64,000 bases of DNA from a virus, in the IMG/VR virus record IMGVR_UViG_3300036715_000468, one strand, 5' to 3'. Below, one piece after another: positions 2,747-48,840 of the stretch. Each line of letters starts with the position of its first letter. Position 1 is the stretch's first letter. The notes under the pieces are model-generated. The model was not told the DNA's origin and made no database searches. It saw only the letters and a program-made list of their open reading frames with translations. Both the position numbers and the translations under genes were made by a program.

Positions 2747-2935
2747 TCAACCGGCATATTTTAATTTTAGAAAAAGAATGTCGTCCTCGGGTATATCACA
2801 CATAAATGCAATTTCATCGATTGTGTAATATCCGAGGATAAGTCTCCATGCACCGTTTTCGAACCGTGGATGATATACAGTACCGGTTAAACCCGTATAG
2901 CTATATTCGGTAAGTTCGACGGTGCTATTTTCCAT
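2747..2935 (-). CDS. hypothetical protein
   Basis: 62-aa ORF overlapping the phosphatase gene start. Confidence 0.3.
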   Translation of the reverse strand: MENSTVELTEYSYTGLTGTVYHPRFENGAWRLILGYYTIDEIAFMCDIPEDDILFLKLKYAG

Positions 2936-3845
2936 CGAGATCAGCTTGTGTAATTACTACAGGCTCTACTTCGCGAAATGTTGTTTCAGTTGCTTGATAA
3001 AATTTCCAAGTATCCAATTCAACACATGTCAATGCTGCCCAATCCTTAGGAACAATTTCCGCAGATGAATACGGCACTGCCGGTTGCCAATAAGAATTAT
3101 ACGCACCTGTATCAATATTTGTTTGTCCAACAACTGTGACAGGTTTTTGTAAAATTGTGTGGCCCGAAATGATATGTGATAGATCATCATTGAATATGTT
3201 TATCCTTCGGCTCTTTACATTGGCTATAGTTAATTCTTTATTTTCGAGATTTTTACTATACAAGTTATAGAATATATTCCGTGACCATAAAAATGCATCA
3301 CCATCTCCACGCTGTGTAGTAGCTAATGCTAATAAATCGACAGGGTCAGCTAACCGTGCATCAGTAATAGTGCCTGCGTTGGTCGGAAGTTCGGCATGTA
3401 TTAAGTGAAACTTCTTTCCGGATTTTGTATTTACGGTAATAAGAAACGGTAGTTCCTCGACAAGCGGAATTAATTCATGCAGCTCGACACTTTCTTCGGC
3501 TGGAATGCATCCGTCCATTGTATCGTTATATGCTTCGGCACCCCAGAATCCGCCATTCTGGTACCAATAGTTGCCCATAATTCCGCCTTTAAATTTCTGA
3601 ACCATCATCTGTTCGTGGTTAGCAAGCACGGAAGCAAACCAAGGCTCGCGTATTAGTCCCAAACACTTAAGGCTTTCAGGTCCGCGATCAACTAAGTCGC
3701 CGACAGAGAACATACGGTCAACAGTAAGGTCGAAATTAAGTTCTTTTAATAGATTCAGGAATACACTATACGAGCCGTGTAAATCCCCTATGCAGAAATC
3801 TCTGCCAAGTAAATTTGGTGCAAATGTTCTTATTGGGTTTATCAT
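2925..3845 (-). CDS. PPP-family Ser/Thr protein phosphatase or phosphoesterase (lambda PPase / PrpA / ApaH-like) with an extra C-terminal domain
   Basis: GDLHG, GDLVDRGP and ANHE motifs in the first ~100 aa match metallophosphoesterase motifs I-III; an additional ~150-aa C-terminal region. Confidence 0.75.
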   Translation of the reverse strand: MINPIRTFAPNLLGRDFCIGDLHGSYSVFLNLLKELNFDLTVDRMFSVGDLVDRGPESLKCLGLIREPWFASVLANHEQMMVQKFKGGIMGNYWYQNGGFWGAEAYNDTMDGCIPAEESVELHELIPLVEELPFLITVNTKSGKKFHLIHAELPTNAGTITDARLADPVDLLALATTQRGDGDAFLWSRNIFYNLYSKNLENKELTIANVKSRRINIFNDDLSHIISGHTILQKPVTVVGQTNIDTGAYNSYWQPAVPYSSAEIVPKDWAALTCVELDTWKFYQATETTFREVEPVVITQADLDGK

Positions 3846-10967: not shown

Positions 10968-11849
10968 TCACGATAAACCTGCATATAAATGCATTTGTAA
11001 GTTTAATTTGAATCCGTAGTCCATGCAGTAACGAGCAGTAAATTTATGATTCTTTTCATTTGCCGCTAAATTTAACACACCTGGTTCCCAGAAATCAATA
11101 ACTTCATCAACAGTGCTACGTTCTGCCATTGTAATTGTGCCTTTTTCGGCGCGGATTAATTTAATAGTTTGTGGTAAGTCATTATAGATATTCATTGGGC
11201 TACAATAAATATCCTTCCCTGTGCGTTCTTTCCATTCGTGCGCCCATTGTGGCACTTGATTATATGGAGACCCTTCGTCGACGCTCATCACAAATTTAAG
11301 ACAGTCTGCGCGATCTAAAATAGTCTTGCTCGGTGCTAGATACTTAACAGCTACACCGTTTTTCTCTGCACATTTCGGCGAACAAACTAAGGTAACACCT
11401 TCGGGTACTAGTGTATCCGGTGTACCGTTACTTTCGACCTGAACTGCTTTAAATGTTGCTAATTGCTTAGTCATAAATGCACTAATATTATCTTGTAACA
11501 ATGGTTCCCCGCCGGTCATCACTAATACGATATTTGGATATTTAATCGAATTAGATCCGTTAGGTAATGCCCACATTGGAACCGTCTTACCTTTATCATT
11601 CCAATAATCACATATTGTGTGATACATTTTAGATTCGATTTCGTCAAAGGTTAACCAATCACCATCATCAAAGAATGTATCACAGAATGAACAATCTAAG
11701 TTGCACTTAGCTAAACGGATGAACAAAGCCGGCATGCCGGAATAAGGACCTTCGCCCTGGAGTGTAAAGAACATGCTTGTTACAAACAAACTATCTTTAG
11801 GTGCATCCTTAAAAAACTTCTTCCCAACAATTTCATTAGTTCCAAACAT
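10968..11849 (-). CDS. queE: radical-SAM 7-carboxy-7-deazaguanine synthase (QueE-like) with a C-terminal extension
   Basis: FFTLQGEGPYSGMPALFIRLAKCNLDCSFCDT: the QueE-specific TLQGEG box followed by the CxxxCxxC radical-SAM cluster. Confidence 0.8.
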   Translation of the reverse strand: MFGTNEIVGKKFFKDAPKDSLFVTSMFFTLQGEGPYSGMPALFIRLAKCNLDCSFCDTFFDDGDWLTFDEIESKMYHTICDYWNDKGKTVPMWALPNGSNSIKYPNIVLVMTGGEPLLQDNISAFMTKQLATFKAVQVESNGTPDTLVPEGVTLVCSPKCAEKNGVAVKYLAPSKTILDRADCLKFVMSVDEGSPYNQVPQWAHEWKERTGKDIYCSPMNIYNDLPQTIKLIRAEKGTITMAERSTVDEVIDFWEPGVLNLAANEKNHKFTARYCMDYGFKLNLQMHLYAGLS

Positions 11850-12519: not shown

Positions 12520-12808
12520 TTGGAAATTTTATCCTAAAAATTAATGCATCGTCTGGATCTTCGAATCCATAAAATACTGATTTTAAATCGTAACATCCTG
12601 ATTGGAAATCTCCATCGTATTTTATGTCGACCGAACCGTTACTGTGAAAATCTATCCAGTTTACCATCTCTGAATAATTTTCGTTGTACCTGTATTCGAG
12701 AATAGTTTTATATTTACTATCGAATACAGGTTGTTGTATTACTATTTCGGCCACTGGCACTTTTTTAGTGAATAACTGTTGTCGGAGTGTATGTAAGAGT
12801 TGCACCAT
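12512..12808 (-). CDS. small protein, member of the C-terminal motif family
   Basis: C-terminus ...FYGFEDPDDALIFRIKFPNE. Confidence 0.45.
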   Translation of the reverse strand: MVQLLHTLRQQLFTKKVPVAEIVIQQPVFDSKYKTILEYRYNENYSEMVNWIDFHSNGSVDIKYDGDFQSGCYDLKSVFYGFEDPDDALIFRIKFPNE

Positions 12809-13133
12809 TTTCAGAATCCTCGCTCACCTCTACCGATATTGCTCGACCTGCATATTTACTAGAAATATAATTGATCAAGTCTTCTGCAAGCATTTCACAG
12901 CTCATATAATCTATTTCAAGAATTGCTTCTTTATACAGACCCTCAAGTTCGCGCTTGAATAAGATAAACTCGATGTCTCTATCATTATGGAATACTTCGG
13001 TTGTTACACGGAAGTGAAACATATGTCTATGTGGGCTACGTAAGAATTCTACCCCTGTCGGAGCATCGGGATAACAGTGTATACCTTCCTTCATAAATGT
13101 TACAAATATTGTTCGTTTCATATTATTTTCCAT
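12765..13133 (-). CDS. possible 6-carboxytetrahydropterin synthase (QueD / PTPS-like T-fold protein)
   Basis: size of ~120 aa and an H-C...H-R-H-M-F pattern resemble the QueD zinc site; lies two genes from queE; the match is weak. Confidence 0.4.
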   Translation of the reverse strand: MENNMKRTIFVTFMKEGIHCYPDAPTGVEFLRSPHRHMFHFRVTTEVFHNDRDIEFILFKRELEGLYKEAILEIDYMSCEMLAEDLINYISSKYAGRAISVEVSEDSENGATLTYTPTTVIH

Positions 13134-13518
13134 TAATTATGTCTATTGTTTTAATAGAAGCCAGATACGGGTCATCGTATCTAATCTCTGCCTCCGCATA
13201 GACAGGTTTCCATGCTAGTGAATAAAACATGGAATAGTGCCTGTTCTTTCCAATTTTTCTAATTCGGAAAAGTAGTTTGGGACGACACATGCCTTCTCTT
13301 TCTTCGTATGTTACTGCAGAGAGAAATTTGCGCATTCGTGTAAGTGGTAGATTAAAAAGTAAATACCACCCGTCGGATACGTGATCGTGATCTAATGCAG
13401 TGCCGTCGGGTAGTCTTTCTATAATACATGTTGATTTAAAACATTCTCCAAAAACAGTAAGGTACGAGTCTTCAAACGCATCTCCTTGTTGTCTTGGTGT
13501 ATTTTTAAATAATTTCAT
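13123..13518 (-). CDS. hypothetical protein
   Basis: 131-aa ORF. Confidence 0.4.
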   Translation of the reverse strand: MKLFKNTPRQQGDAFEDSYLTVFGECFKSTCIIERLPDGTALDHDHVSDGWYLLFNLPLTRMRKFLSAVTYEEREGMCRPKLLFRIRKIGKNRHYSMFYSLAWKPVYAEAEIRYDDPYLASIKTIDIINGK

Positions 13519-13519
13519 A

Positions 13520-13705
13520 TTACTCCTTATCTACATAGCTGACTAATTTAATACTGGAGTTTGATTCGTCAAAACCTTCCGAACGGATCAATGACGATAC
13601 GTATTCGAGAACTTCATCACACCCAGTTTTACCTTCAGCTGTAGATTCTTCCCAGAATTCATCGCCGCCTTCATGTATAACTACTTCGAATACGTATTTT
13701 TTCAT
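13520..13705 (-). CDS. hypothetical protein
   Basis: 61-aa acidic ORF. Confidence 0.3.
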   Translation of the reverse strand: MKKYVFEVVIHEGGDEFWEESTAEGKTGCDEVLEYVSSLIRSEGFDESNSSIKLVSYVDKE

Positions 13706-14589
13706 TTTTTAGTCCTAGCTTTCTGTATAAGTTCTTTAGTTGACAATGGATCCTTTGTTGTTCCCGCTGTATATGCATCAGCAGTCTTTTCTGGCGATAC
13801 CATTGTTGGAATAATAGATTCTAAAGTTCCTTGTGTATCAGGCTTCAGTGATGTTTTAGTCGTAGTGTCAAGACCTAAGGTTCCGTCATTTAACACTGCA
13901 TCTACATCAAATGTTTTATTACTACCTGGAACAACTGCTGCTTCCACGGCTGCTTTAATTAGCTCGACTGCTTCTTTAGGTGAATTATTACCTAAGTCCA
14001 TATATACAATTTTGCGCTCTGGTTCTACAACCGAAGTACCTTCGATAATCATGTCATCGCCGTATTCTGCCCATCCGGTAAATCGGTTACTATCTGTAAC
14101 TTCTGCATGATTCATACACCATACGCCTGGATTAGTGGCAGCGAAATTGATATCATCAATCTTAATTGTTAAATTAGGACTAGATGTGTTCACATGTGGG
14201 ACCGGTACACTAAGGATAGGTACGAAGTTTCTACACTGCCATATACCCTTGTTAAGTATCTCTAATACCATAACATGTTTGTGTGCTGGATAATCAATCG
14301 ATACCATATAGCTCATATCGAGTAATGCCTGGATTTGTTTTTCCCAGTCGCTTGCTAATGTGTTACCTACCATGTACACACCATTTACTTTATCGACTGA
14401 ATCGAATGAACGATTTGCACTTAAAAAGATATGCTTACAGTTATGTTCTTTTGCATATTTAACTATTGTATCAGTATCTTGTAAGCCGACAACGAATAAT
14501 GTCTTCTTACCGAATGCAGTTGTTTGCTCAATCTCTGGTCCGACGAAAAATGTTGCGCCTTCATGACCTTTTCTTACGAATTGTTCCAT
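13702..14589 (-). CDS. hypothetical protein of the modification island (Rossmann-like N-terminus, Thr/Lys-rich tail)
   Basis: 295 aa; N-terminal GATFFVGPE...KKTLFVVG; 4-nt overlap with the upstream glycosyltransferase gene. Confidence 0.45.
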   Translation of the reverse strand: MEQFVRKGHEGATFFVGPEIEQTTAFGKKTLFVVGLQDTDTIVKYAKEHNCKHIFLSANRSFDSVDKVNGVYMVGNTLASDWEKQIQALLDMSYMVSIDYPAHKHVMVLEILNKGIWQCRNFVPILSVPVPHVNTSSPNLTIKIDDINFAATNPGVWCMNHAEVTDSNRFTGWAEYGDDMIIEGTSVVEPERKIVYMDLGNNSPKEAVELIKAAVEAAVVPGSNKTFDVDAVLNDGTLGLDTTTKTSLKPDTQGTLESIIPTMVSPEKTADAYTAGTTKDPLSTKELIQKARTKK

Positions 14590-14590
14590 T

Positions 14591-15682
14591 TTAATTCCTT
14601 ATTAAATTGTTTATTAAATCTGTTGCTGTAGAATATTTTTTTAGACGAGTCATATGTTCTTCTAATTTTATTCTGTATGTATCATAGTGTGACATTACAT
14701 CTATAATTTTATCGATAATATCTTGTTTATGAATTTTATATAAATCAAATGTTTCAGTCCACTCCGACGGATATAAAAAATCTGTGTTGTCAAACATTTC
14801 CGAATAACTTAGTCTTTCCGGAATAAGTGGGATGGTACCCAAAACAGGTCCTTCGATTCCGGTCGAGATTCCATAAGTCTCTTGTTTACTAGCACTAAAT
14901 ACCATTTTAGATTCGCCTAAAAGTGTATGATATTCGTGCTTACTAAGCTGGTTATCCTGGCACACAACAAACTCGTATTGTGGTAACGATAATGCAAGGT
15001 CTCTGAAGATTTCCACTTGTTTCTCTGGTGCAATTCTATGTGGAAACAATATAAGATCACGCTTTACTAAATTTTTATATGGAGCTAGTGTATCTTCCAT
15101 ATATTCCATTGGCCACCCCGTCCGTATAATTTTGCCATTATCGAGCCAATCTTCGACGCACGATCCGTTCGAATTTAATAAATTCCAACAGAACATATTG
15201 ATGTGAAAATCTGTAGCAAAATAGTTGTGATCTAATGCATGGAATATAGCTTTTTCGGTGTGTTTTACCCAATCTTTATTGCCAATCAACCTACCTAGGA
15301 AATCATGGCTATCCCAACTACCTGCGTGAAATAGTCCATGGAATTTCCAATTAAGGTTTAACAAATCCGACATATATCTAAGCTGTATGATAATAGGATT
15401 CCATGCATCTGTAAATAGAAATTGATCATTAATCGTAGTTTCACCACGATTATAATAATCTAGAAAATTACATAACTGTGAACTTTTCCAATAATTCGTA
15501 TCAGAAAAATTCAGAAACGCGCCAGGGGTCACTATCGTATTTTTCTGTATACCGTCGATCTGTATTACGTTAGTCTGCGTGTCAACCGCAGACCTTAGTA
15601 GTTCGGGTATATGTTCGTGCCATTGAGCAGTATATCTCGTTTCTAGTGGTTCGATAGAAAATACCCATATTGTTTGTTTCAT
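14591..15682 (-). CDS. GT-B fold glycosyltransferase (GT1/GT4-like)
   Basis: C-terminal KQETYGISTGIEGPVLGTIPLIPE fits the E-x7-E donor-binding motif of retaining GT-B enzymes. Confidence 0.5.
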   Translation of the reverse strand: MKQTIWVFSIEPLETRYTAQWHEHIPELLRSAVDTQTNVIQIDGIQKNTIVTPGAFLNFSDTNYWKSSQLCNFLDYYNRGETTINDQFLFTDAWNPIIIQLRYMSDLLNLNWKFHGLFHAGSWDSHDFLGRLIGNKDWVKHTEKAIFHALDHNYFATDFHINMFCWNLLNSNGSCVEDWLDNGKIIRTGWPMEYMEDTLAPYKNLVKRDLILFPHRIAPEKQVEIFRDLALSLPQYEFVVCQDNQLSKHEYHTLLGESKMVFSASKQETYGISTGIEGPVLGTIPLIPERLSYSEMFDNTDFLYPSEWTETFDLYKIHKQDIIDKIIDVMSHYDTYRIKLEEHMTRLKKYSTATDLINNLIRN

Positions 15683-16605
15683 TAAGAATAAGCCTCCGTG
15701 CCATAATTGATATATCCTCTTCCGTAACCCGGTGCTCTGTGCAGCCCTTCTGAAAACGCTAACTCTACTTCTGTTTCCCTATCGTAAGACTTACACCAGA
15801 GTGTGCTAACATCGATTAATCCGTCCTGAATCATCGATACAGCTTCTTCCATATAACTATAGAAATGCTCGTTACGTGGACTAGGAAACTTAATATTAGT
15901 AGCATTCCATAAAAATTGTCCAAATGTAATATTTGCAGCAGGGTGTTTTTCAGCAGCAAGTATAATAGTAGCACGTTCCGCATACAAGTTCAAGTCTAGA
16001 TACTCTGGTTTCTCTGAAATATCTATTACGTATTTGAATTTCTTACCCGCTACTTCCTCTACCGAAACCAATTTAGCATTAGTCTGTTTATTCCAAAATT
16101 CTTTATTAGAATTACCTACAACAGTTACTTGAGCAGGTTGGTGCGTATTCATGTTACTCAAATAAGTATAAACAACTGTGGATAAGAATCCAGAACCCAT
16201 AATTAGTATTTCTTCGCCAGCCCAAAATCTTAGTGAGTTTGCAATATTGATAGCACATGCAACTGGTTCGATAATGTATTTAGGCAATAGTTCGGGAATC
16301 TTTACAAACATGCGGTCCGGACAATTATAGTAATCGGCAAATGCTGGCTCGCCACGTGTGGCAACAAAATCACCCTCCTTAATATTTCTGATACTATTAC
16401 CTACTTTAGTAACTATACCGACACTTTCGTGACCTTGTATAGTTTTAGGCAATAACTGAAATGTTCCACAATACATATCGATATCGGATCGACACATGCC
16501 TGTAAAGACAGACTTTACTTCGATTTCGTTTGATGTAATTTCGGGCTTGTCCCACTCTTCGTGGATTATGTCCTGTTTACCTGTTGTATAAAATAGTCTA
16601 GTCAT
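15682..16605 (-). CDS. zinc-dependent medium-chain dehydrogenase (MDR/ADH superfamily)
   Basis: GMCRSDIDMYCG plus GHESVGIV (structural and catalytic Zn motifs) and GSGFLSTV (Rossmann). Confidence 0.7.
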   Translation of the reverse strand: MTRLFYTTGKQDIIHEEWDKPEITSNEIEVKSVFTGMCRSDIDMYCGTFQLLPKTIQGHESVGIVTKVGNSIRNIKEGDFVATRGEPAFADYYNCPDRMFVKIPELLPKYIIEPVACAINIANSLRFWAGEEILIMGSGFLSTVVYTYLSNMNTHQPAQVTVVGNSNKEFWNKQTNAKLVSVEEVAGKKFKYVIDISEKPEYLDLNLYAERATIILAAEKHPAANITFGQFLWNATNIKFPSPRNEHFYSYMEEAVSMIQDGLIDVSTLWCKSYDRETEVELAFSEGLHRAPGYGRGYINYGTEAYS

Positions 16606-17464
16606 CGAATGCCTCTAAGAATTCATGGATCTGAACATCCATGTCGTATGTATTTGTTGTATCTTGTAACATAACACCGTATGCTGCGGCTGGACATAAT
16701 CCAAAATTCCATTCGTATGTTGTGCCGTCTCTGAAAAATAGTGTAATAGATTGCTTATCGTATCCTTCTTTCCATGATGCAGATAACTTTAATGTTACAT
16801 TTCCAATCGTAGTTGCTGCAATTGCAGTATCGTCTACATTATATGTGCCTGTCGGATATACTGATCCATAATCAGTAGAGGAGATACTACCTAGGTTCCA
16901 GCGTTGATAAGCAGCTTGTTCGAATTTTGCTGACTTAAGAGCTTCGGTGCCAAATAGTTTAAGTGCAAAACAATATAGGTGTGGCATTAAGTCTCTCGAT
17001 ATTCCGCCAAATGCAAATTGTTTATGTGTAAACCAGCTACCTGGATTCGGGATACGGTTACCGTTCAGCCAGTTGATGTCTACACCGATAACTTCTTTCT
17101 CTTGTATTAATCTGAATATGTCACCGTAATTATCACGATACATATTATTCTTAACCATATGGAATTGTGTATCACTATATGTTGTGCATAGATCTTTCCA
17201 ACCGAATGAATCTTCCAGACCCGGCTTCTCTACGAAAATACGCTTTGTGCCCGTAGCTGCTAATCCTTCTGCAATCTTACTATGTGTAAAATTTGGAGTG
17301 CAAATTACAGCTATGTCGAATGGTGTTGTTATTTGAGATACATCCCTGTAATTTGCATTAGGTGTTGCAGCATCTAAAATAGATACTTCATATCCTAACT
17401 TATTTAATTCCGGCCAATACACATTGGCGCCAATTCCGCCGAACCCGGCTAATAATGCTTTCAT
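16598..17464 (-). CDS. Gfo/Idh/MocA-family NAD(P)-dependent oxidoreductase
   Basis: N-terminal GFGGIG Rossmann motif and the family-typical EKP motif (FVEKPGL). Confidence 0.65.
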   Translation of the reverse strand: MKALLAGFGGIGANVYWPELNKLGYEVSILDAATPNANYRDVSQITTPFDIAVICTPNFTHSKIAEGLAATGTKRIFVEKPGLEDSFGWKDLCTTYSDTQFHMVKNNMYRDNYGDIFRLIQEKEVIGVDINWLNGNRIPNPGSWFTHKQFAFGGISRDLMPHLYCFALKLFGTEALKSAKFEQAAYQRWNLGSISSTDYGSVYPTGTYNVDDTAIAATTIGNVTLKLSASWKEGYDKQSITLFFRDGTTYEWNFGLCPAAAYGVMLQDTTNTYDMDVQIHEFLEAFDD

Positions 17465-20199: not shown

Positions 20200-20430
20200 T
20201 TATTTTCCTTTAGATTGCATACTTTTATGGCGTATATTGCGTCCATGTATTCTGTGAGGCTTGCTCATATATTTTGGTTCGCAGTCTGCAAATACTGAAT
20301 GGGCACAAATAAGCCCATTCAGCATACCATGCATATATTGTACACTCGGATCGTGTGCATGTATACAATCCGTTTGTATTCCGATAAGTCTCTCTAAAGT
20401 GCTAAGGTCTTTTTGTAACTTCTCATTCAT
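20200..20430 (-). CDS. hypothetical small Cys/His-rich protein; start trimmed to an internal Met so that it overlaps the DpdA gene end by only 8 nt
   Basis: the track ORF 20200..20505 overlaps the DpdA 3' end by 83 nt in another frame; the internal start MNEKLQKD lies just after the DpdA stop. Confidence 0.3.
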   Translation of the reverse strand: MNEKLQKDLSTLERLIGIQTDCIHAHDPSVQYMHGMLNGLICAHSVFADCEPKYMSKPHRIHGRNIRHKSMQSKGK

Positions 20431-21985
20431 CTTCTTCTGCAAGGTGCATGTCATCCATATCAGCCATGTCCTGGACATCAGGTGCTTCCTCGACTGAGAC
20501 ATCATCGATTTTATGCCACATATCCTCTTGTCCCATTGTTGTGACTTGCTTCTTATTACCGAAACTAATACTTTCTAGGAATGCAGTATATTCTTCTAAT
20601 AAAGCACGTGGATTAGGTGTTGCTGGATCGAGTAATTTTTCAACAAAGGAGTTAAAATACAAAATGTTATTAGGAACAAATTCATCTTTATTAACAGGCT
20701 TCTTCTTTCCCTGGCGATACCAAGCACTAGGATCTACTGTACCAAGTTTTGCATATGCAACGTCAGCTAATCGATTGATTTCCTGAACTGCATCGATATG
20801 GTTAAAAACGTTGTGCGCCATTACAAGTGCATAAGAAGTTGTGTCCCAGCTTGTCTTACCTTCCTTACCATGCTTGTTTACGTCACCCGGGCCCATAACA
20901 CAGATGTCACCTACTGTTAATCTGTTGTTAATAGGTCCACCGTATGGCATCGCATTTTTAGATTTAGTAAATCCTTTATTGTCTATACCTTTACCCATAG
21001 AATAAGTAAGTCTATCTGCGCTGAAGTGAGTATAATCATAAGATAATGCATACCCACCGGCTGCTACGAATGGCGAAGCAGCATCAAAACTAATACTTAG
21101 ATTTGGGTTATCATGTTTCTTAAGTTGGCGTTCAATCGATGTTAAATAACATGCCCAGTCAAGCCTACCGATACCAAGGAAGTGAATCCAATCCTTCCCT
21201 GCTAACATATTATCGTCACGTAAGTCAAGAATACGACTTAATGTAGTTTTCATTTGTCGCATATTACAACCAGCAAACGCATATCCCTCTAGTGTGCGAT
21301 CGCGTGTATAACCCATTGCTTCGACTGCGTCCGGCATACTATACGGAATAACTCGTTCATACCAGGTTTTAGAGTTGTCTGCATCACTGCCAGACAACAC
21401 ATTTAAAAACTTAGTTGCGCCTGGTACCCTATTACTCATAAAGTATTGCAAATTATACTCAGTTACATCCAAGCAATCTTCGAAACAAGTTAGTCCAGTC
21501 TTTGCACCGAATGGTGGTGTCCACGCAAACGCTGGAACATCGAGTGTCATCGACCAGTCAGCTGTATGTTCTAAGTATCTAAGAATCTCTTCGCGTAACT
21601 TATCACCAGCCGGAGTCTTTACTGTTGTCCAGTCAAGTTTAATAACACCTGTTGCAATTTGGAATCCGCCACTATCACCGATAAGTATTGTTTTCTCTCT
21701 ATCTCGTCCGTGAATCATCGGCGCCGCACGATCACATTTTGCTAAATTTCTATTAGCGTGACCTGCAGAATATAGTCCATATGGATAATGGTAATACGAA
21801 TCTTCAGGTTTTAAGAAGTCGATTCCCTGTATTCCGTGTTCGAATTTTTCTGGCACTCGCTCTGGCTTAATATAATCTGCGATATTTTTGTCGTATCCTA
21901 GCTGTGTTACATAAAAACCACTGATGGCTGGCAAATATTTTGCCCATTTGCCGTCATCGTGCATCTTCCCTAAATCAATTCCCAT
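20423..21985 (-). CDS. dpdA: TGT-family 7-deazaguanine transglycosylase (DpdA-like DNA-modifying enzyme) with an acidic C-terminal tail
   Basis: ILIGDSGGFQIATG matches the catalytic DSGGFQ box of queuine/archaeosine TGT; sits in a phage with QueE; 520 aa. Confidence 0.7.
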   Translation of the reverse strand: MGIDLGKMHDDGKWAKYLPAISGFYVTQLGYDKNIADYIKPERVPEKFEHGIQGIDFLKPEDSYYHYPYGLYSAGHANRNLAKCDRAAPMIHGRDREKTILIGDSGGFQIATGVIKLDWTTVKTPAGDKLREEILRYLEHTADWSMTLDVPAFAWTPPFGAKTGLTCFEDCLDVTEYNLQYFMSNRVPGATKFLNVLSGSDADNSKTWYERVIPYSMPDAVEAMGYTRDRTLEGYAFAGCNMRQMKTTLSRILDLRDDNMLAGKDWIHFLGIGRLDWACYLTSIERQLKKHDNPNLSISFDAASPFVAAGGYALSYDYTHFSADRLTYSMGKGIDNKGFTKSKNAMPYGGPINNRLTVGDICVMGPGDVNKHGKEGKTSWDTTSYALVMAHNVFNHIDAVQEINRLADVAYAKLGTVDPSAWYRQGKKKPVNKDEFVPNNILYFNSFVEKLLDPATPNPRALLEEYTAFLESISFGNKKQVTTMGQEDMWHKIDDVSVEEAPDVQDMADMDDMHLAEEDE

Positions 21986-22999: not shown

Positions 23000-25951
23000 T
23001 CACATGTTACTGAAATCAAATAATGTCTCTAAATGTGCATGTTCTTTATTTGTTCTACTAAGATCCCATTTAAGAACACCTAACAAGTTTTCTACCTTCT
23101 TATCTACGATACCTGCCATCATATCTTCACTATCGAACGGGAGACTCAAGAACCATTCCGGCAAATGTGTTTCATCGACGGGATAAGCAATACTTGATAA
23201 TCTATTTTCACTTGTTTCTTTTAATTTACAAATAATAATCTTTTGTCCATCGATGATACGCATAGCATGTTGATCCATATGAACTTCTTTTAACCTATTC
23301 CATGCAAGGCTGGCCGTTACGTGTCCAGGTACATGTAAATTACCTACATGAATCCCTTTCATCTTTTTGAACCCTGCATCTTCAAGTTTGTCTTTATAAT
23401 GAGTTAACTTATTAACTGAACGAGGTGTACCTTGTTGCCACGGTTTCATATCTTCAAATTTTTCTTTGAACAAACGAACCTTCTCTATCACAGCGTTCTC
23501 GCCCTTGTCTGTAAGAGTATCCATCAGTATGTCTGACAAGAATTTTTGCACGAATTTCGGTGTATCTGCGCGTTTTAAATCAAGACCCATAGCCTTTACT
23601 TTGCCTACTTTGCCAGCAACGTCAAGTCTAATACCATCCTTGTCATACATCAAACAAGCATAACGCTTCTTAACCATCCATATACCTGTCTCAGATACTG
23701 TTTCACGTGAACTAGCAATTACACCGGTCGAACGCTTAACTGGCACATGCAAACTAGATAATAAGAATTCGGGAAATGTTGCTGATACAGCTTTAGCTAA
23801 ATCATTATATAAATCCACAACACTTTCCTTTGTCCACAGGATATCGCCATTCTCGATTTCTTCTTTAAGACTAGGGTATGCCGAAAAATAACACGAGTCA
23901 GTATCGCCATATACTATTGACTTACCGTAATGATCATATTCGCCTGTGATCATTTCATTTGTTTTAGCAGCCATATGTTTAGTAATTGTTCTACCAGTTA
24001 AAGTAGTTGATTGCCCTAAGCGTTGATCGAAGAATCTGCTACCTGCATTCAATAACGCACCATATGCAGAGTTAAGGTTAATTTTCTTAACTAGTTGACG
24101 CTTGTCCCAGAAACTGATAATACGTGCTAAGACTGCTTGATCTCTATAAATTGCTTTACCATCCTTAACTGTTAAATTATGTTGGTTCATATATTGCACG
24201 ACACGCTTCTTATGACCCTCAGTAATAAGTTCTCGTAATTTTTTAGGCTTATATGATTCGGAATCTATATAAGGATTTGCCTTTATATCTGTATCACTAA
24301 TATCTTCTATACTAAACAAGTCGCTAGGTACTTTAACACCTGCCATTTTAGCATTATCCGATATATCCTCGTAATTAGTCATAATACCTTGCAACACTTT
24401 ACGTTCACTGTACCATCGTGTTAATAGACTAGGAATTACACCGTCAGCGTCAGTCTTAAAGATTGTCCCGTTTGCACTAATGCACCAAGGTTGACCTCCC
24501 TCAAAGATTAAGTCATGAAGTTCTTTGCCTGTTACTTCATACTCAGACCCGTCTTCCATATCGAGAATTAATTTGTTACCAATGTCCTCATTATAGAAAT
24601 CGTCCATTTCTAATACATGAAATCTATCATTCCACCACGATGCAAATGTATATCTGGCGCCTTTCGCTTCCCATGCTGCAATTGCTGTATTAGTGCGATC
24701 TAGTCTGATCTGTCCAACGATCATTTCTGGACTCATGTTCAACGTTCTAATAACAGACGGATACAAGGATTTCATATCTGTGCTACCAATCCATCTGTGG
24801 AATCCCTTCCTCGGTGTTGCTACCCATCCACCTGCTGCCCTTACGTCTTTTTCACTGCTAGTATGTTTCTTGTCAGGACAAATCATATTACGATTATGTG
24901 CTTCCATTAACACGTTTTGGTCTGTTACTGCAACCGCACCCATAACCTTAGGAATCAATACACAGCTAGAATGCGCAATCGAATTAGCTAAGTCGATAAA
25001 CTGTAATTTCTTATCAAGTTTATCTAACAAACGTGTATCTTGAAGGTTGTATTCTAAGAATTTCCTAAAATCATCGTTATACAATTCGTCGAGTGTTCCT
25101 TCGTATGCAATTTTTGTTTCGTCAAGTTCAATTTCTGCAATCGCATTTAACGCATAGCTATGTCGTTCTTCATAGTTGTATTGTTTGTAAATCTGCATAT
25201 AATCCATCGAAATTCGACCAATTAAATCATATGTCAACGCTTCGCGACCACCACGTTCATACTTACGTTCTTTCGGCGATTGATCCCATAGACAGAGTCT
25301 ACGAGCTTCGTGTTTACCTAATACTTTCTTTATACGATTTACTACATACGGAATATCATACGCTTCTGAATTCCATCCCGATAATACATCTGCATCAGAT
25401 ATTACATCGATAAACGCATTTAGCATTTCAACTTCGGTCTTAAACAGAACTACATTACCTACTTCATCTGCAATTGCCGATGCTTCTTCCCACGTTAATG
25501 TCTCGGGAGGAAATGCTAGACAGATAATTTCGTCAAGCCATTGTAAATGAACCGATATAGCAGTTATATAATTGTCTGCATCAGCAGCTTCGGACCAACC
25601 TTCTTCTTTATCAAAGCTAGTCTCAATATCGAAAAAGGCTACATTTAGCGCAGGTGCTTCGCCCGAATGATAATTATGTTCTAAGCAACGTCCTATGGGA
25701 TTAACATCGGATTCCCATTTCTTAACATTACCTGACATTGTCTTAACTAATTTTTGTTTTTCAGTAAATGACTGTGGGACAATCTTCTTGAGTGTATTTC
25801 CATAGATTGATTTATGTGATCCACGCGGATCACTAACATAGAAATGATAGTCGGGCGGATATTCTTTATAAACTCTTTTACCGTTTATACGTTCTACTAC
25901 CTTAATTACTTCTTCTTTGCCGTTCCTGTTAAAATAACTGTCGACATACAT
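23000..25951 (-). CDS. family-B DNA polymerase (T4 gp43-like)
   Basis: FDIETS (exo I), DMKSLYPSVI (pol motif A) and IVYGDTDSCYF (motif C, YGDTDS). Confidence 0.95.
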   Translation of the reverse strand: MYVDSYFNRNGKEEVIKVVERINGKRVYKEYPPDYHFYVSDPRGSHKSIYGNTLKKIVPQSFTEKQKLVKTMSGNVKKWESDVNPIGRCLEHNYHSGEAPALNVAFFDIETSFDKEEGWSEAADADNYITAISVHLQWLDEIICLAFPPETLTWEEASAIADEVGNVVLFKTEVEMLNAFIDVISDADVLSGWNSEAYDIPYVVNRIKKVLGKHEARRLCLWDQSPKERKYERGGREALTYDLIGRISMDYMQIYKQYNYEERHSYALNAIAEIELDETKIAYEGTLDELYNDDFRKFLEYNLQDTRLLDKLDKKLQFIDLANSIAHSSCVLIPKVMGAVAVTDQNVLMEAHNRNMICPDKKHTSSEKDVRAAGGWVATPRKGFHRWIGSTDMKSLYPSVIRTLNMSPEMIVGQIRLDRTNTAIAAWEAKGARYTFASWWNDRFHVLEMDDFYNEDIGNKLILDMEDGSEYEVTGKELHDLIFEGGQPWCISANGTIFKTDADGVIPSLLTRWYSERKVLQGIMTNYEDISDNAKMAGVKVPSDLFSIEDISDTDIKANPYIDSESYKPKKLRELITEGHKKRVVQYMNQHNLTVKDGKAIYRDQAVLARIISFWDKRQLVKKINLNSAYGALLNAGSRFFDQRLGQSTTLTGRTITKHMAAKTNEMITGEYDHYGKSIVYGDTDSCYFSAYPSLKEEIENGDILWTKESVVDLYNDLAKAVSATFPEFLLSSLHVPVKRSTGVIASSRETVSETGIWMVKKRYACLMYDKDGIRLDVAGKVGKVKAMGLDLKRADTPKFVQKFLSDILMDTLTDKGENAVIEKVRLFKEKFEDMKPWQQGTPRSVNKLTHYKDKLEDAGFKKMKGIHVGNLHVPGHVTASLAWNRLKEVHMDQHAMRIIDGQKIIICKLKETSENRLSSIAYPVDETHLPEWFLSLPFDSEDMMAGIVDKKVENLLGVLKWDLSRTNKEHAHLETLFDFSNM

Positions 25952-26287: not shown

Positions 26288-27670
26288 TTAGAAACGGCCT
26301 GTAGCATTTCCGGGGGTACCGTTGTTAGTACCTTTGTATTGATGGTCATCGTAACCGTGTATGGGTGATAGCAAACCTTTTCTTTGTGTCTCATCGGCAA
26401 CTGCTTGGCCGAAACGATACATTTGGTCGGGCATTACTCTGTTAAGCCATTCTACTATAAGTGGTCTAATATCACGACCCGGGTCAGTTTCTTCTAACGA
26501 AGTAAATTGATCGTTTAATTCGTCATCATTGATAATTTCCGATATGTAAATAGGTGCTACGATAGCTGGAATCGGTTTTTCCATTAAACGCTTAACCATT
26601 TCGAAATCTTCGGGCGTGAGCGGAAGTTTATGAACTGCTTCGGATAATTTTTCACCGCGCTGCCTGGCTTTAGAAAGTTTACCTACTGCTTGTTTCATTC
26701 CACTCATACGCTTTTTAGCATGGGCACTCGAGCTTTCTTTGTCCACGCCTGCTTTTGCCTTAGCAATATGCCCCTCTGCATCTTTGCCCGATTTACCAAA
26801 ATAACTCTTTAGTGTGTTAACTGATAATTCGTCCAATTCTTCAACCTCGGATAGACGTTTAAGTTCGACTGCATTTATTGTGGAAGGTGTTCTTACCACA
26901 GGTTTATATATAGATGCCCTTGCTATATCACTCCTGTCTATTTCTCTCCGTATTGCTCTTAATGACGATGCTTCTATCTGTCTTATGCGTTCACGATGCA
27001 CTCCAAACACTTTTGCCACTTCTTCGAGTGTCATGCCGTCCATAAATCGCATTTTTATTACATCCTGGTGCCTCGGTAATAATACTTTCATGTATTTCGC
27101 TATTAACTTTTTAGCATCTATACTATCGGTATCAAGGTCGTAGCTATGTAATGGATCACTTGCTATAGATCTTAGTTGTTCTGCGTTGTCTGCAGGATCT
27201 GGGCGCAATGTAGGCATTTTCTCACCATTGTATGTATCGCTGTCCGGATTATATGTCGATGTTTGTCGATTAGGTCGCGCCTCGGTTACAGGAGTAACAG
27301 GGCGTTTTCCGTATCTATATCCGCCATACTTATTATCTAATCTGTCGACTGCTCTAGACGCTCTTGACAAACTAGAGTATGGTTTGCCTACAACTTTACC
27401 AGTCTGACGATCATATACTTCATATTGCTTGTCTTCCGTATTTTCAGCACTCTCAGCTACATTATTTTTCTTAATAATATCCTTAAGTGCGATATAGTCA
27501 GCTTTTAATTTAGACTTTAGGAAATCACGAGCAGTACCTGCAGCCATGCCACAAAGTTTATCAACATACAGATCCATCCGGACTTGTAAAGTGTCGATTT
27601 GCTTCATAGACTTTGTTGATAGACCTTTATCTATCATGGACTTCGGTAGCAGGAGTTCTAGTATTTTCAT
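26288..27670 (-). CDS. protein carrying a sigma-70 region-4 (-35 binding HTH) domain without a recognisable region 2
   Basis: LPRHQDVIKMRFMDGMTLEEVAKVFGVHRERIRQIEASSLRAIRREI is a near-canonical sigma region 4.2; the rest (460 aa) is unrelated and low-complexity. Confidence 0.65.
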   Translation of the reverse strand: MKILELLLPKSMIDKGLSTKSMKQIDTLQVRMDLYVDKLCGMAAGTARDFLKSKLKADYIALKDIIKKNNVAESAENTEDKQYEVYDRQTGKVVGKPYSSLSRASRAVDRLDNKYGGYRYGKRPVTPVTEARPNRQTSTYNPDSDTYNGEKMPTLRPDPADNAEQLRSIASDPLHSYDLDTDSIDAKKLIAKYMKVLLPRHQDVIKMRFMDGMTLEEVAKVFGVHRERIRQIEASSLRAIRREIDRSDIARASIYKPVVRTPSTINAVELKRLSEVEELDELSVNTLKSYFGKSGKDAEGHIAKAKAGVDKESSSAHAKKRMSGMKQAVGKLSKARQRGEKLSEAVHKLPLTPEDFEMVKRLMEKPIPAIVAPIYISEIINDDELNDQFTSLEETDPGRDIRPLIVEWLNRVMPDQMYRFGQAVADETQRKGLLSPIHGYDDHQYKGTNNGTPGNATGRF

Positions 27671-39471: not shown

Positions 39472-40233
39472 TTGAGAAAAACTAGAAAAGAAGACACAAA
39501 ATCTGCAACAAAATCTTCACAAAACTCACGCACATCTTACCAACGGACCGATCCATCAGTAGTCAATGTAGTTAAACTCGCAAATAGAAATTATAAACGA
39601 GTAGAGATACTTCCACGCAATACTGCCCAAGAAGTTTATGTAGATGCACTATTGGAAAAACGTATAGTATTTGCAGTTGGGCCGGCGGGAACGGGTAAAA
39701 CATTACTAGGCGTACTGAGAGCTATCAAGGCTTTACGTGAAGGTGAAATTACAAAAATTATATTGACACGCCCTGCCGTCAGTGTAGACGAGAAGCACGG
39801 ATTTTTACCGGGTGACTTAAATGCTAAGATGGAACCTTGGACTAAACCTATTTTCGACGTATTCGAAGAACACTACGGGTTGTTGGAAACTAAAAAAATG
39901 TTGGAAGACGGGATCATTGAAATTGCACCATTGGGTTTCATGCGCGGTCGCACATTTAAGAATGCGTATGTCATTGCAGACGAAATGCAAAATTCAACTC
40001 CTGACCAGATGAAGATGTTGTTAACAAGGATAGGCGAAGGATGTTCTATGATCATTACAGGAGATATGAAACAACATGATCGTGGATTTGATAAGAATGG
40101 TTTAAAAGATTTTCTAGAACGTTTTAAAACAGCACCTAAGAAGTCAATGGCAATTTGTTTGTTCGAACGACAGCATGTCGAACGTGACGAGCTAGTCGGT
40201 GAGATACTTGATGTTTATGGAGACGACGAATAA
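39472..40233 (+). CDS. phoH: PhoH-like ATPase
   Basis: Walker A GPAGTGKT and the conserved PhoH core; an AGGAG RBS; the start codon appears to be TTG. Confidence 0.85.
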   Translation: MRKTRKEDTKSATKSSQNSRTSYQRTDPSVVNVVKLANRNYKRVEILPRNTAQEVYVDALLEKRIVFAVGPAGTGKTLLGVLRAIKALREGEITKIILTRPAVSVDEKHGFLPGDLNAKMEPWTKPIFDVFEEHYGLLETKKMLEDGIIEIAPLGFMRGRTFKNAYVIADEMQNSTPDQMKMLLTRIGEGCSMIITGDMKQHDRGFDKNGLKDFLERFKTAPKKSMAICLFERQHVERDELVGEILDVYGDDE

Positions 40234-48060: not shown

Positions 48061-48470
48061 GTTAACTCAAATAATGTAGCGTGTGTTGTATTAGCAAAAT
48101 AAATTTCTAATGTACCGGTCGTAATATTTCCTATACCCCAGTCCCAATCCGTGCCCTGAATGCCAATATGTTCTTCCAGCCACGGACGGTAATGCTGATT
48201 TGGTTCAGAATCAAGCCCACGCATAAATGGACGAGTTGCAGTATGTAATGTTATCATATCAGATATTATCTGCGGATACTTTCTAAATAATATATATTCA
48301 TAATTTGCTGACATATTAAATATTAAGCCGGCTGGTGCAGCCATCGGCTGCACAGCAAGTATATCATTGGCCAGAATTGTCGGCATACATTGTCTGATCA
48401 ATGGCATCATTGCCTTTCTAAATGTCTCCATCTTCCCTGTTATCGGAATTGTATGCATCAAATTTCCCAC
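48048..48470 (-). CDS. protein with the family motif at its C-terminus
   Basis: C-terminus ...IYFANTTHATLFELTWPM. Confidence 0.4.
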   Translation of the reverse strand: MGNLMHTIPITGKMETFRKAMMPLIRQCMPTILANDILAVQPMAAPAGLIFNMSANYEYILFRKYPQIISDMITLHTATRPFMRGLDSEPNQHYRPWLEEHIGIQGTDWDWGIGNITTGTLEIYFANTTHATLFELTWPM

Positions 48471-48840
48471 CCGGGTAACGAGCTTCTAGTTTTGCTACAT
48501 TATCTGCAATAACTCGATTAGGATCTAATCCCAGTGAACGACATGCATTAGTCCAGTACCAGATTACATCACCCAATTCTTTGGATGCATGAGCTTTGGT
48601 TTCTTCAGTGAATGCCTTACTATGAAAGACTGCCTTTTTAACAATCTCGGAAAACTCACCCGCTTCGCCCGACATACCCATTGCTGATGTAATTAACAAT
48701 GGGACATTAACATCTGGCCCTCCATCGTTACCGTCTAACCGATCACAACTATTCATGAATGAAGTTAAGTCATTACTTTCTTTGCTTGTAATGGCTGTAA
48801 CAAAATCTGTGTATTTTTTTAAGTCGATATTTTTTGTCAT
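48418..48840 (-). CDS. mazG: MazG-like nucleoside triphosphate pyrophosphohydrolase (second copy)
   Basis: GEAGEFSEIVKK and ELGDVIWY motifs. Confidence 0.65.
   Translation of the reverse strand: MTKNIDLKKYTDFVTAITSKESNDLTSFMNSCDRLDGNDGGPDVNVPLLITSAMGMSGEAGEFSEIVKKAVFHSKAFTEETKAHASKELGDVIWYWTNACRSLGLDPNRVIADNVAKLEARYPGGKFDAYNSDNREDGDI

Follow-up and report, generated by a model that had tools for sequence, protein, structure and literature searches.

Closest described systems

Plain dDG has been reported in the DNA of Cellulophaga phage phiST; the same study defined LxxxHRHxF as the signature of DpdL and predicted that this protein decarboxylates 7-carboxy-7-deazaguanine, and heterologous tests of that prediction in E. 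coli failed (PMC10516641). Phage DNA glycosylation has been described in the T-even phages, where the alpha- and beta-glucosyltransferases of T4 glucosylate hmC, and in further systems with glycosylated 5hmC or 5hoC (10.1101/2023.12.21.572611; PMC13326640). The only precedent that we found for glycosylation of a 7-deazapurine ring away from N9 is that of huimycin and dapiramicin, for which a GT4-type enzyme, HuiG in the case of huimycin, is proposed to glycosylate the base at N2 (PMC7439116). The DNA of the Pseudomonas jumbo phage PA5oct reportedly withstands restriction enzymes that have G in their sites, and the chemistry of the modification is undefined (PMC12191111).

Organization of the locus

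The window analysed here is a 64,000 nt stretch of the virus record IMGVR_UViG_3300036715_000468. The genes for which coordinates are given are all on the minus strand. The four genes of the original prediction, a sugar-chemistry cassette between queE/queD-like genes and dpdA, were confirmed. They encode a divergent Gfo/Idh/MocA-type NAD(P) oxidoreductase (288 aa, 16598..17464), a divergent medium-chain (Zn) dehydrogenase/reductase or MDR (307 aa, 15682..16605), a GT-B (GT4-like) glycosyltransferase (363 aa, 14591..15682) and an uncharacterized enzyme-like protein, here called U295 (295 aa, 13702..14589). The junctions between them are -8, -1 and +1 nt, where negative values are overlaps.

The tight co-directional string does not end with U295. 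It runs on through two small ORFs of 61 and 131 aa (13123..13705) to the gene for the 122-aa QueD-like T-fold protein DpdL (12765..13133), with junctions of -4, +1 and -11 nt, and from there towards the gene for a QueE-like radical SAM 7-carboxy-7-deazaguanine synthase (10968..11849). The small ORFs matched no known family and are lineage-specific: among 84 related loci, two have a homolog of the 61-aa product and none has one of the 131-aa product. On the other side of the cassette is the gene for a 520-aa DpdA-family (TGT-like) DNA transglycosylase (20423..21985).

Proteins encoded by the locus

The glycosyltransferase belongs to a family that has no Pfam model. It had no match in Pfam or NCBIfam and no sequence match in the PDB, including with a profile query, and the only PHROG match was to phrog_4356 (1.7e-4). 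Its assignment is based on the fold, which has two Rossmann-like domains with a cleft between them, the arrangement that defines GT-B enzymes, and on a pair of Glu residues. These are spaced as E268-x8-E277, and not as the E-x7-E given in the original prediction, although the latter spacing is found in homologs and both Glu are invariant. R216 and K221, basic residues of the phosphate-binding type, are also invariant. The roles of these four residues are presumed from what is generally known of GT4 enzymes. The nearest folds are those of GT4 enzymes that act on small molecules, namely sucrose-phosphate synthase, BshA and a pterin glucosyltransferase, and the T4 DNA glucosyltransferase is less near.

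The Gfo/Idh/MocA assignment was borne out by a score of 25.1 bits with PF01408 (cutoff 24) and by both predicted motifs, GFGGIG at residues 7-12 (GxGxxG of the N-terminal Rossmann domain) and EKP at 79-81. The score with PF22725 was slightly below the cutoff (25.9 bits, cutoff 27). The catalytic-type Asp-x3-His motif of the C-terminal alpha/beta domain is D158-x3-H162, and among 18 phage homologs both residues are kept in 90 % or more. Matches to PDB sequences, which include inositol 2-dehydrogenase and DgpA, are remote (E 1e-4 to 3e-3), and the levoglucosan dehydrogenase model gave only 18 bits (cutoff 650).

The MDR protein matched ADH_N (PF08240, GroES-like; 41.4 bits, cutoff 23.5) and phrog_2640. 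The residues at the catalytic zinc-ligand positions of the family (Cys, His-Glu) are C38 and H59-E60, which are kept in 19 homologs together with C117. However, the Cys-rich zinc site that had been predicted is not present. Many MDR members have a four-Cys structural zinc lobe and some lack it; here it is absent, and the five Cys of the protein (38, 46, 95, 117 and 271) are not clustered.

U295 is modelled as an alpha/beta domain of about 170 aa followed by a disordered tail. The original prediction described it as Rossmann-like, which could not be demonstrated. The fold matches are weak, and there was no sequence match in Pfam, PHROG, NCBIfam or the PDB. The family comprises 657 representatives at 50 % identity, most of them stand-alone proteins of about 170 aa, and one related locus, L055, encodes a fusion of the U295 domain with DpdL. 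Where the fourth protein has a tail, it is often rich in Lys (KPAAK-like), and such a composition may permit DNA binding.

The neighbour at 12765..13133, originally called queD-like, was re-assigned. It does not contain the QueD signature CxxxHGH and in its place has LRSPHRHMF at residues 31-39, conforming to LxxxHRHxF, and it is therefore DpdL. It is 48 % identical to DpdL of ACP17 and 37 % identical to CGPG_00067 of phiST. The QueE protein matched phrog_2076 (3.7e-45) and, below the cutoff of that model, TIGR04322 (6.6e-20), and contains CNLDCSFC at residues 49-56. The window yielded no match for FolE or QueD.

The DpdA-family protein has no sequence match in Pfam or the PDB. It includes DSGGFQ at residues 104-109, a motif of the catalytic-Asp DSGGxQ type that is invariant in 34 homologs. 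Using hhalign, it aligned with a 424-aa ORF adjoining the glycosyltransferase gene of ACP17, the presumed dpdA of that phage (probability 95.9 %, E 6e-9), and with a protein of phage X1 annotated as TGT (77 %). The probability for DpdA3 of phiST (CGPG_00065) was only 14.8 %.

Comparison with described systems

The locus shares with phiST a pathway of FolE/QueD/QueE type, a DpdL with LxxxHRHxF and a TGT-like transglycosylase gene, grouped next to genes for replication. Both also have a MazG-like gene, which in the window is about 35 kb away. However, phiST lacks homologs of the glycosyltransferase, U295, Gfo and MDR proteins, and its DpdA3 is only 259 aa long and scarcely aligns with the 520-aa protein. 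With the T-even and the other 5hmC/5hoC systems, the shared features are a phage GT-B enzyme whose gene adjoins base-modification genes, a phage-encoded supply of nucleotide sugars that varies with the lineage, and nuclease evasion as the presumed role. They differ in the pyrimidine hydroxymethylase, a thymidylate-synthase homolog that is the source of the hydroxyl in T-even phages and was not found among the larger window ORFs scanned.

Huimycin and dapiramicin share with the locus a 7-deazapurine that is derived via FolE, QueD and QueE and decorated with a sugar by an enzyme of the GT-B/GT4 type. Huimycin is, however, a secondary metabolite of actinomycetes, in which the free base (preQ0, O-methylated) is glycosylated at N2, QueC is needed, and DpdA and DpdL are not involved. 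In the window, QueC was not found and a DpdA-family gene is present, and, whereas HuiG-family enzymes carry PF13439, the phage glycosyltransferase has no Pfam match. Nucleic acids with a glycosylated derivative of 7-deazaguanine are also known from eukaryotic tRNA, in the form of galactosyl- and mannosyl-queuosine. However, the nucleic acid is RNA, the sugar is attached through the cyclopentenediol hydroxyl of queuosine, a nucleoside beyond the reach of this module, and the enzymes are unrelated.

PA5oct and its relatives (Wroclawvirus) encode homologs of all four proteins as well as DpdA, DpdL and QueE, and their replication module is broadly syntenic with that of the window. Identities are 27-49 %, and include 49 % for the DpdA-family protein (EST35_0316), 35 % for MDR (EST35_0363) and 27 % for Gfo (EST35_0362). 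The PA5oct cassette is split, with DpdA-glycosyltransferase-DpdL 28 kb from Gfo-MDR-fourth gene, and its fourth protein has no tail. We know of no published function for any of the PA5oct cassette or module genes.

Distribution of the genes in related genomes

Linkage was counted in 55 viral contigs in which the glycosyltransferase gene is flanked by 5 kb or more in each direction. DpdL was within 5 kb of the glycosyltransferase in 53 of the 55 and the DpdA-family transglycosylase in 40. Many of these cases belong to a single large group of related phages in which the gene order is conserved, and several loci are near-duplicates. The linkage is also kept in PA5oct, ACP17, Phosso, Xanthomonas phage X1 and integrative elements of Methylobacterium, and it persists where DNA polymerase identity is 24-32 % and the gene order is shuffled (ACP17, L044, L050, L054, L058 and L072). 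In X1, where the glycosyltransferase is 25 % identical, the order is FolE ... glycosyltransferase, TGT, DpdL, QueE. The Methylobacterium elements contain a minimal triad, in the order DpdA, a 201-aa ORF, DpdL and glycosyltransferase, and FolE, QueD and QueE were not detected in the 17 kb examined. DpdL was found without this glycosyltransferase in phiST and about seven further phage lineages. That the glycosyltransferase is almost never found without DpdL, while DpdL sometimes occurs without the glycosyltransferase, fits a step downstream of DpdL. No deazaguanine genes were found in the 12.8 kb examined around a remote branch of the glycosyltransferase family (24 % identity) in the Xanthomonas PhiXhv phages.

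The other cassette genes are less constant. U295 is a frequent companion of the glycosyltransferase/DpdL pair, present in about half of the loci; in ACP17, as in most contigs, no more than 2 kb separates its gene from DpdL, and among isolated phages it is confined to those that also carry the glycosyltransferase. Gfo and MDR are present in 14-15 of the 55 contigs (about one quarter), never one without the other, and outside PA5oct they are always within the stretch from DpdA to the glycosyltransferase. The order Gfo-MDR-glycosyltransferase-DpdL-DpdA is found in L044, L050, L054, L058 and L072, despite polymerase identities of 28-32 %. In one locus a SulP permease gene is located between Gfo and MDR, and homing endonucleases and small ORFs also gather in the region. 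The glycosyltransferase is a core component together with DpdL and DpdA, and U295 and the Gfo/MDR pair are accessories. The four genes are a packed string in the window but not a true unit.

Related modules carry other sugar genes, including complete nucleotide-sugar pathways. RmlA, RmlC and RmlD are found with an RmlB-like gene; a GHMP kinase and a cytidylyltransferase accompany an NTP-transferase-HAD fusion, as for heptose-type activation; and cupin, SDR and UDP-glucose dehydrogenase-family genes occur with that of a sugar C-methyltransferase. In the closest relatives, an epimerase/dehydratase gene directly follows DpdL, and FolE frequently follows the glycosyltransferase directly. The Gfo/MDR pair looks like one sugar-tailoring variant among these modules. 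Enzymes that hydroxylate or hydroxymethylate are not a universal part of the module.

Proposed pathway and alternative explanations

With moderate confidence, we propose that these genes form the sugar branch within a 7-deazaguanine DNA-modification module of the DpdL type. The fusion of the U295 domain to DpdL, the restriction data for PA5oct with its four homologs and the huimycin and dapiramicin precedent all favour this, besides the packing and linkage of the genes. GTP would be converted to 7-carboxy-7-deazaguanine by FolE and QueD, supplied from elsewhere in the phage genome or by the host, and the QueE of the window, and the predicted decarboxylase DpdL would yield 7-deazaguanine, which the DpdA-family transglycosylase would exchange for guanine in the phage DNA. 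The GT-B enzyme would add a sugar from a nucleotide sugar to the deazaguanine, most likely on DNA but possibly on the free base prior to insertion. Gfo and MDR may act as a pair to oxidize a ring hydroxyl of the sugar, or to oxidize and re-reduce (epimerize) it, on the donor or after transfer, and the fourth protein may be an enzyme that works beside DpdL. The product is most likely a glycosylated 7-deazaguanine in DNA, with the chemical steps, their order and the acceptor atom all deduced from the genes. As 7-deazaguanine has no hydroxyl, the sugar would need to be attached at a ring carbon (C7/C8) or at N2. This weighs against the proposal, as do the nearness of the glycosyltransferase fold to small-molecule GT4 enzymes, the failed tests of DpdL, the low frequency of Gfo and MDR, the relatedness of many of the loci, the lack of matches for FolE and QueD in the window and the PhiXhv branch. 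The bulky, variable sugar is predicted to shield the DNA from attack by nucleases and by enzymes recognizing plain 7-deazaguanine. The earlier suggestion that a sugar is made or tailored and then placed on DNA, for example on a deazaguanine, is thus partly supported, by the linkage of the glycosyltransferase to DpdL and DpdA and by the nucleotide-sugar pathways of related modules. Its alternative, glycosylation of virion proteins, finds no support in the gene context. Our literature searches found no published description of such a system, in agreement with the original statement that none has been described in phage, and, if correct, the proposal would make this the first DNA reported to have a glycosylated modified purine.

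The missing hydroxyl in dDG, the position of FolE immediately after many of the glycosyltransferase genes and the proposed action of HuiG on a free 7-deazapurine would also suit a small-molecule glycoside as the product of these enzymes, either of a pterin, as in the biopterin glucoside of cyanobacteria, or of a free deazapurine, as in huimycin. Such a compound could serve as a sink, as a regulator or against host defences. We consider this unlikely. The glycosyltransferase follows DpdL plus DpdA and not FolE or QueD alone, and in the 17 kb examined of the minimal Methylobacterium element only the former were detected with it. Replacement of whole sugar pathways suggests selection on a recognized structure, for which a metabolic sink has no need, and the Lys-rich tails of the fourth protein, if they do bind DNA, also point away from a small molecule. 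It is similarly improbable that only the glycosyltransferase belongs to the module and that Gfo and MDR, possibly along with the fourth gene, have no connection with it and are auxiliary metabolic genes in a plastic part of the replication module, for example for host sugars or inositol. The low frequency of the pair, its distance from the glycosyltransferase in PA5oct, the plasticity of the region, the intervening SulP gene and a divergence too great for substrates to be assigned would all be expected of such genes. However, Gfo and MDR always occur together, keep their placement in distant phages with different gene orders, and overlap or abut the start of the glycosyltransferase gene in the window. 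Even in PA5oct, they remain joined to the fourth gene, which in most contigs and in ACP17 is close to DpdL.

All characterized phage DNA glycosyltransferases that we found in the literature act on 5hmC, 5hmU or 5hoC, and six of the 84 loci include a thymidylate-synthase homolog. The enzyme could accordingly act in T-even fashion on a hydroxymethylated or hydroxylated pyrimidine, with the deazaguanine genes merely clustered nearby, but this is very unlikely. Thymidylate-synthase or hydroxymethylase homologs were not found in most loci or among the scanned ORFs of the window, beyond which the genome extends, and no thymidylate-synthase homolog was seen in the minimal DpdA/DpdL/glycosyltransferase elements. 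The restriction data for PA5oct indicate a modified G.

Organization of the four genes

The four minus-strand ORFs originally predicted at 13702-17464 are present exactly at those coordinates. They encode a Gfo/Idh/MocA-type protein (16598-17464, 288 aa), an MDR-type dehydrogenase (15682-16605, 307 aa), a glycosyltransferase (14591-15682, 363 aa) and a fourth protein (13702-14589, 295 aa), and the junctions between consecutive genes are an 8-nt overlap, a 1-nt overlap and a 1-nt gap. The packing continues via two small ORFs into a 122-aa gene (12765-13133) and then towards QueE, so the tightly packed unit is longer than four genes. The composition of the window is uniform (33-43 % G+C), and a scan for consensus promoters and terminators performed no better than on shuffled sequence. 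Isoelectric points were uninformative, as all family-assigned proteins of the module, including DpdA, are acidic.

Neighbouring deazaguanine genes

The 122-aa gene, on the minus strand, had been described as queD-like. However, its product carries the DpdL signature LRSPHRHMF and not the CxxxHGH of QueD. The motif LxxxHRHxF separates DpdL, the predicted 7-carboxy-7-deazaguanine (CDG) decarboxylase, from QueD (Cui et al., PMC10516641). The window DpdL is 48 % identical to the phage ACP17 protein tested by Cui et al. and 37 % identical to CGPG_00067 of the Cellulophaga phage phiST. The identity of QueE (10968-11849, minus strand) is clear.

The 520-aa protein (20423-21985, minus strand) matched no family in Pfam or PHROG, and an hmmsearch with its profile did not reach TGT structures. 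It contains an invariant DSGGFQ, and was placed solely by hhalign against phage DpdA proteins, which gave probabilities of 95.9 % (E 6e-9) for the 424-aa ORF beside the ACP17 glycosyltransferase, presumed to be the dpdA of that phage, 77 % for a TGT-annotated protein of phage X1 and 15 % for phiST DpdA3, with which it hardly aligns. On these alignments we assign it to the DpdA family and claim no subfamily.

Queries from related phages found no FolE, QueD, phosphoribosyltransferase, HIT or GalE-like genes in the 64-kb window, and the approximately 6 kb beyond its left-hand end contains no gene with a deazaguanine-pathway Pfam annotation. An exact-protein search with genes at the right-hand end returned no record. 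As the relatives are jumbo phages, the genome is probably much larger than the window. A MazG-like nucleotide pyrophosphatase is encoded at 48418-48840 (minus strand; phrog_229, 3.6e-43), whereas in phiST a MazG-like gene directly adjoins DpdL. The window protein may lower the level of canonical dGTP or sanitize the pool of nucleotides.

Linkage of the glycosyltransferase to DpdL

Viral contigs were scanned with the glycosyltransferase alignment, which gave 80 loci, and linkage was counted in the 55 loci where the glycosyltransferase has 5 kb or more of sequence to either side. DpdL lies within 5 kb of it in 53 of the 55 and a detectable DpdA in 40, while the fourth gene is this close in 27, the MDR gene in 15 and the Gfo gene in 14. 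The linked genes are on the same strand throughout, usually in the order polymerase, clamp, DpdA, [Gfo, MDR], [fourth gene], DpdL, glycosyltransferase, FolE, ..., QueE, where brackets denote genes that are not always present. Several of these loci are near-duplicates and most come from one broad phage group with conserved order. However, the set is kept despite rearrangement in distant lineages whose polymerases are only 28-32 % identical (L044, L050, L054, L058 and L072), and synteny alone does not explain the linkage.

DpdL is found without this glycosyltransferase in phiST, for which plain 7-deazaguanine in DNA (dDG) was reported, and in about seven other lineages, but the glycosyltransferase is almost never found without DpdL. 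This asymmetry fits a glycosyltransferase step that builds on the DpdL product.

The smallest versions are in Methylobacterium (L103, from the 885-kb contig of sp. NFXW15, and L098-L100), where integrative elements, with a serine recombinase and a VapE-like gene on their flanks, contain only a DpdA-like gene, a 201-aa ORF, DpdL and the glycosyltransferase. Such elements suggest that the module has temperate or mobile forms, which may rely on deazaguanine precursors of the host. In Pseudooctadecabacter jejudonensis (L102, 7404-10560), a weak Vut_1 match (26.4 bits; cutoff 27.2) is followed by the glycosyltransferase and then a DpdA-like gene; DpdL was not detected at this locus. The Vut_1 family includes the YhhQ queuosine-precursor transporters. 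A C5-cytosine methylase gene is nearby.

Of 84 related loci, 40 (e.g. L061, 11958-12464) have inside the module a phosphoribosyltransferase gene (PF00156), which the window lacks. It mostly lies downstream of the glycosyltransferase, in the company of FolE and HIT genes, and a HIT-family gene is found in 16 of the 84. The phosphoribosyltransferase might salvage guanine released by DpdA or synthesize a deazaguanine nucleotide.

Relatives among isolated phages

No isolated phage matched the region in a DNA search at near identity. In protein comparisons, the window shows synteny with the replication modules of the Pseudomonas jumbo phage PA5oct and the Sinorhizobium phage Phosso. PA5oct has homologs of all four genes, in two trios 28 kb apart, namely the adjacent DpdA (EST35_0316), glycosyltransferase (0317) and DpdL (0318), and Gfo (0362), MDR (0363) and the fourth gene (0364). 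According to a 2025 preprint (PMC12191111), PA5oct has QueE and PTPS-like genes, and its DNA is resistant to several enzymes whose sites contain G; the authors inferred a modified G without giving its chemical identity. The T4-like ACP17 (24 % polymerase identity) carries QueD, FolE, the fourth gene, DpdA, glycosyltransferase, DpdL and QueE, and in Xanthomonas phage X1 a glycosyltransferase of 25 % identity has FolE on one side and TGT-DpdL-QueE on the other.

The glycosyltransferase and the fourth protein

Neither protein matched Pfam, NCBIfam or PDB sequences, including in profile searches. The predicted model of the third protein has an unambiguous GT-B fold (pLDDT 89), and it is by this modelled fold only that we identify it as a glycosyltransferase. 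T4 DNA alpha-glucosyltransferase scored only 15.7 against the model. The possibility that the N-terminal, acceptor domain is more conserved than the donor domain was rejected (mean pairwise identity 47 % versus 58 %), though the N-terminal domain nonetheless has 35 nearly invariant positions. Metagenomes contain at least 8000 members of the family. In Xanthomonas phage PhiXhv-12 (L106, 3735-6969), a distant homolog (24 % identity) is preceded by GlmS and an LmbE/BshB-like deacetylase. Most genes in the 12.8 kb examined there are hypothetical, and none is annotated as a deazaguanine gene. This homolog may be part of another system, one of amino-sugar modification, and the link to DpdL holds for the closer glycosyltransferase family and not for the remote PhiXhv branch.

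The fourth protein is predicted, with confidence, to form an alpha/beta domain of about 170 aa followed by a disordered tail. It has many invariant polar residues, its sequence contains no radical-SAM Cys cluster, and a search of a viral fold library returned solely the ACP17 homolog. The family comprises 657 representatives at 50 % identity, mostly stand-alone proteins of about 170 aa, and 1054 metagenomic members. It is an uncharacterized, enzyme-like family. Among isolated phages the gene is confined to those that carry the glycosyltransferase, and its usual place is immediately before DpdL. At one viral locus (L055, 8555-9538), a single 327-aa ORF joins the N-terminal domain of the fourth protein (aa 13-179) to a DpdL domain (aa 211-324). 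This single case could be a Rosetta-stone fusion or else an artefact caused by a frameshift in the assembly.

In the tail (residues ~185-295) and in the homologs P0002-P0012, two short motifs are conserved, (E/T)LGLD and AAEAYA.G...DPL, and in many homologs KPAAK-like repeats rich in Lys come after them. The PA5oct and ACP17 homologs lack the tail. The Lys-rich composition could point to DNA binding. The weak fold matches of the fourth protein include STAS domains, which SulP transporters carry as their cytoplasmic domain.

The two dehydrogenases and the sugar pathways

The Gfo protein scores 25.1 bits with PF01408, barely above the cutoff. It contains GFGGIG, EKP and a D158-x3-H162 pair that is kept among phage homologs, and looks like a divergent but intact Gfo/Idh/MocA oxidoreductase. 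The solved structures that it matches weakly are ring dehydrogenases of sugars or inositol. The MDR protein has a clear ADH_N domain with conserved C38, H59 and E60, but it has no four-Cys structural zinc lobe, and the Cys-rich zinc site attributed to it is therefore absent. For both proteins no curated model came near its cutoff, and hence no substrate can be assigned. As the nearest relatives of the pair, which are remote, oxidize ring hydroxyls of hexoses, glucosides and inositols, it is a reasonable guess, and only a guess, that the two form an oxidation-reduction pair that epimerizes or oxidizes the sugar. A gene for a SulP-family permease (PF00916, 7.6e-42) lies between the Gfo and MDR homologs in the phage contig L011 (6618-7790) and also in L012.

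Nucleotide-sugar pathways differ between lineages within the same module. L030 and L031 have an epimerase/dehydratase with RmlA, RmlC and RmlD, apparently a complete route to dTDP-rhamnose. L067 and L075-L076 have an NTP-transferase-HAD fusion together with a GHMP kinase, L074 has ORFs of matching size, and a cytidylyltransferase-like gene is found in L067, L075, L077, L079 and L082; taken as a set, these genes look similar to heptose-type activation. The genes of L010 are those for a sugar C-methyltransferase, a cupin, an SDR, a UDP-glucose dehydrogenase-family protein and an epimerase/dehydratase, and L027 carries the last two types. In L022 and L023, the closest relatives of the window (83 % polymerase identity), an epimerase/dehydratase directly follows DpdL, whereas the window has small ORFs at this position. 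In these stretches the glycosyltransferase is the sole such enzyme recognized. Phage cytosine glycosylation clusters likewise swap whole sugar pathways around one conserved transferase, and the swapping suggests selection on the identity of a displayed sugar. On this reading, the Gfo and MDR pair is one more sugar-tailoring variant. The pair could instead be unrelated auxiliary genes, as their patchy distribution and their split location in PA5oct would allow, but they are constantly paired inside the module across distant lineages.

Proposed modification

The best-supported model runs from QueE via DpdL and DpdA to the glycosyltransferase. QueE would produce CDG, which DpdL would convert to 7-deazaguanine for DpdA to place in DNA, and the glycosyltransferase would add a sugar tailored by the accessory enzymes, at the level of either the DNA or the free base. 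The model is weakest at the acceptor, because 7-deazaguanine has no hydroxyl group and its glycosylation would need unusual chemistry; no universal hydroxylating enzyme was found across the module loci. A pyrimidine acceptor, as in T-even phages, is a rival reading, but no hydroxymethylase was found among the larger window ORFs scanned or in most loci. With 7-deazaguanine as acceptor, the nucleophilic pyrrole carbons C7 or C8 could yield a C-glycoside, though we know of no precedent for this by a GT4-like enzyme on a pyrrole carbon. Alternatively, the exocyclic N2 could yield an N2-glycoside, for which there is a precedent in the proposed route to huimycin, where the GT4-type enzyme HuiG would attach a sugar at N2 of a free 7-deazapurine (PMC7439116). 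ACP17 DpdL and DpdA produced no dDG in E. coli, and the authors considered that other enzymes are possibly needed (PMC10516641). A need for the glycosyltransferase or the fourth gene would fit this failure.

We tentatively propose, as a possibility that falls somewhat short of an even chance, that the module makes the first glycosylated purine in any DNA, with a sugar directly on the 7-deazaguanine ring (as a C7/C8 C-glycoside or an N2-glycoside), attached by a new GT-B family acting with DpdL and DpdA, and exchanged between lineages via interchangeable cassettes (rhamnose, heptose, branched, or tailored by Gfo and MDR as in the window). To our knowledge, DNA glycosylation occurs only on modified pyrimidines, and 7-deazaguanine DNA modifications carry only small C7 substituents. 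A sugar on a deazapurine would join these two known kinds of modification. The original statement that no such phage DNA glycosylation system had been described agrees with full-text searches of a literature that covers few subscription journals, so an earlier report may exist. The searches found no glycosylated deazaguanine in DNA and no discussion of this glycosyltransferase, and the word 'glycosyl' is absent from the main deazaguanine paper.

If the proposal is correct, the at least 8000 metagenomic homologs would make this a common, overlooked DNA chemistry. It could also explain the missing dDG in the ACP17 experiment, the G modification of PA5oct, a therapeutic candidate, and escape from defence enzymes that recognize plain 7-deazaguanine. 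The idea is directly testable in the cultured phages PA5oct, ACP17, Phosso and X1.

Other genes in the window

A homing-endonuclease gene interrupts the family-B DNA polymerase of PA5oct (L003, 1-3209) and of many related contigs. Unlike in PA5oct, the window polymerase (23000-25951) is a single intact 983-aa ORF. Further genes encode a Band_7/SPFH-family protein (191-1408), a NinI-like Ser/Thr phosphatase (2925-3845), a sigma-factor-like protein (26288-27670), a Lon-like ATP-dependent protease (33900-36116; phrog_4871, 5.6e-247) and PhoH (39472-40233).
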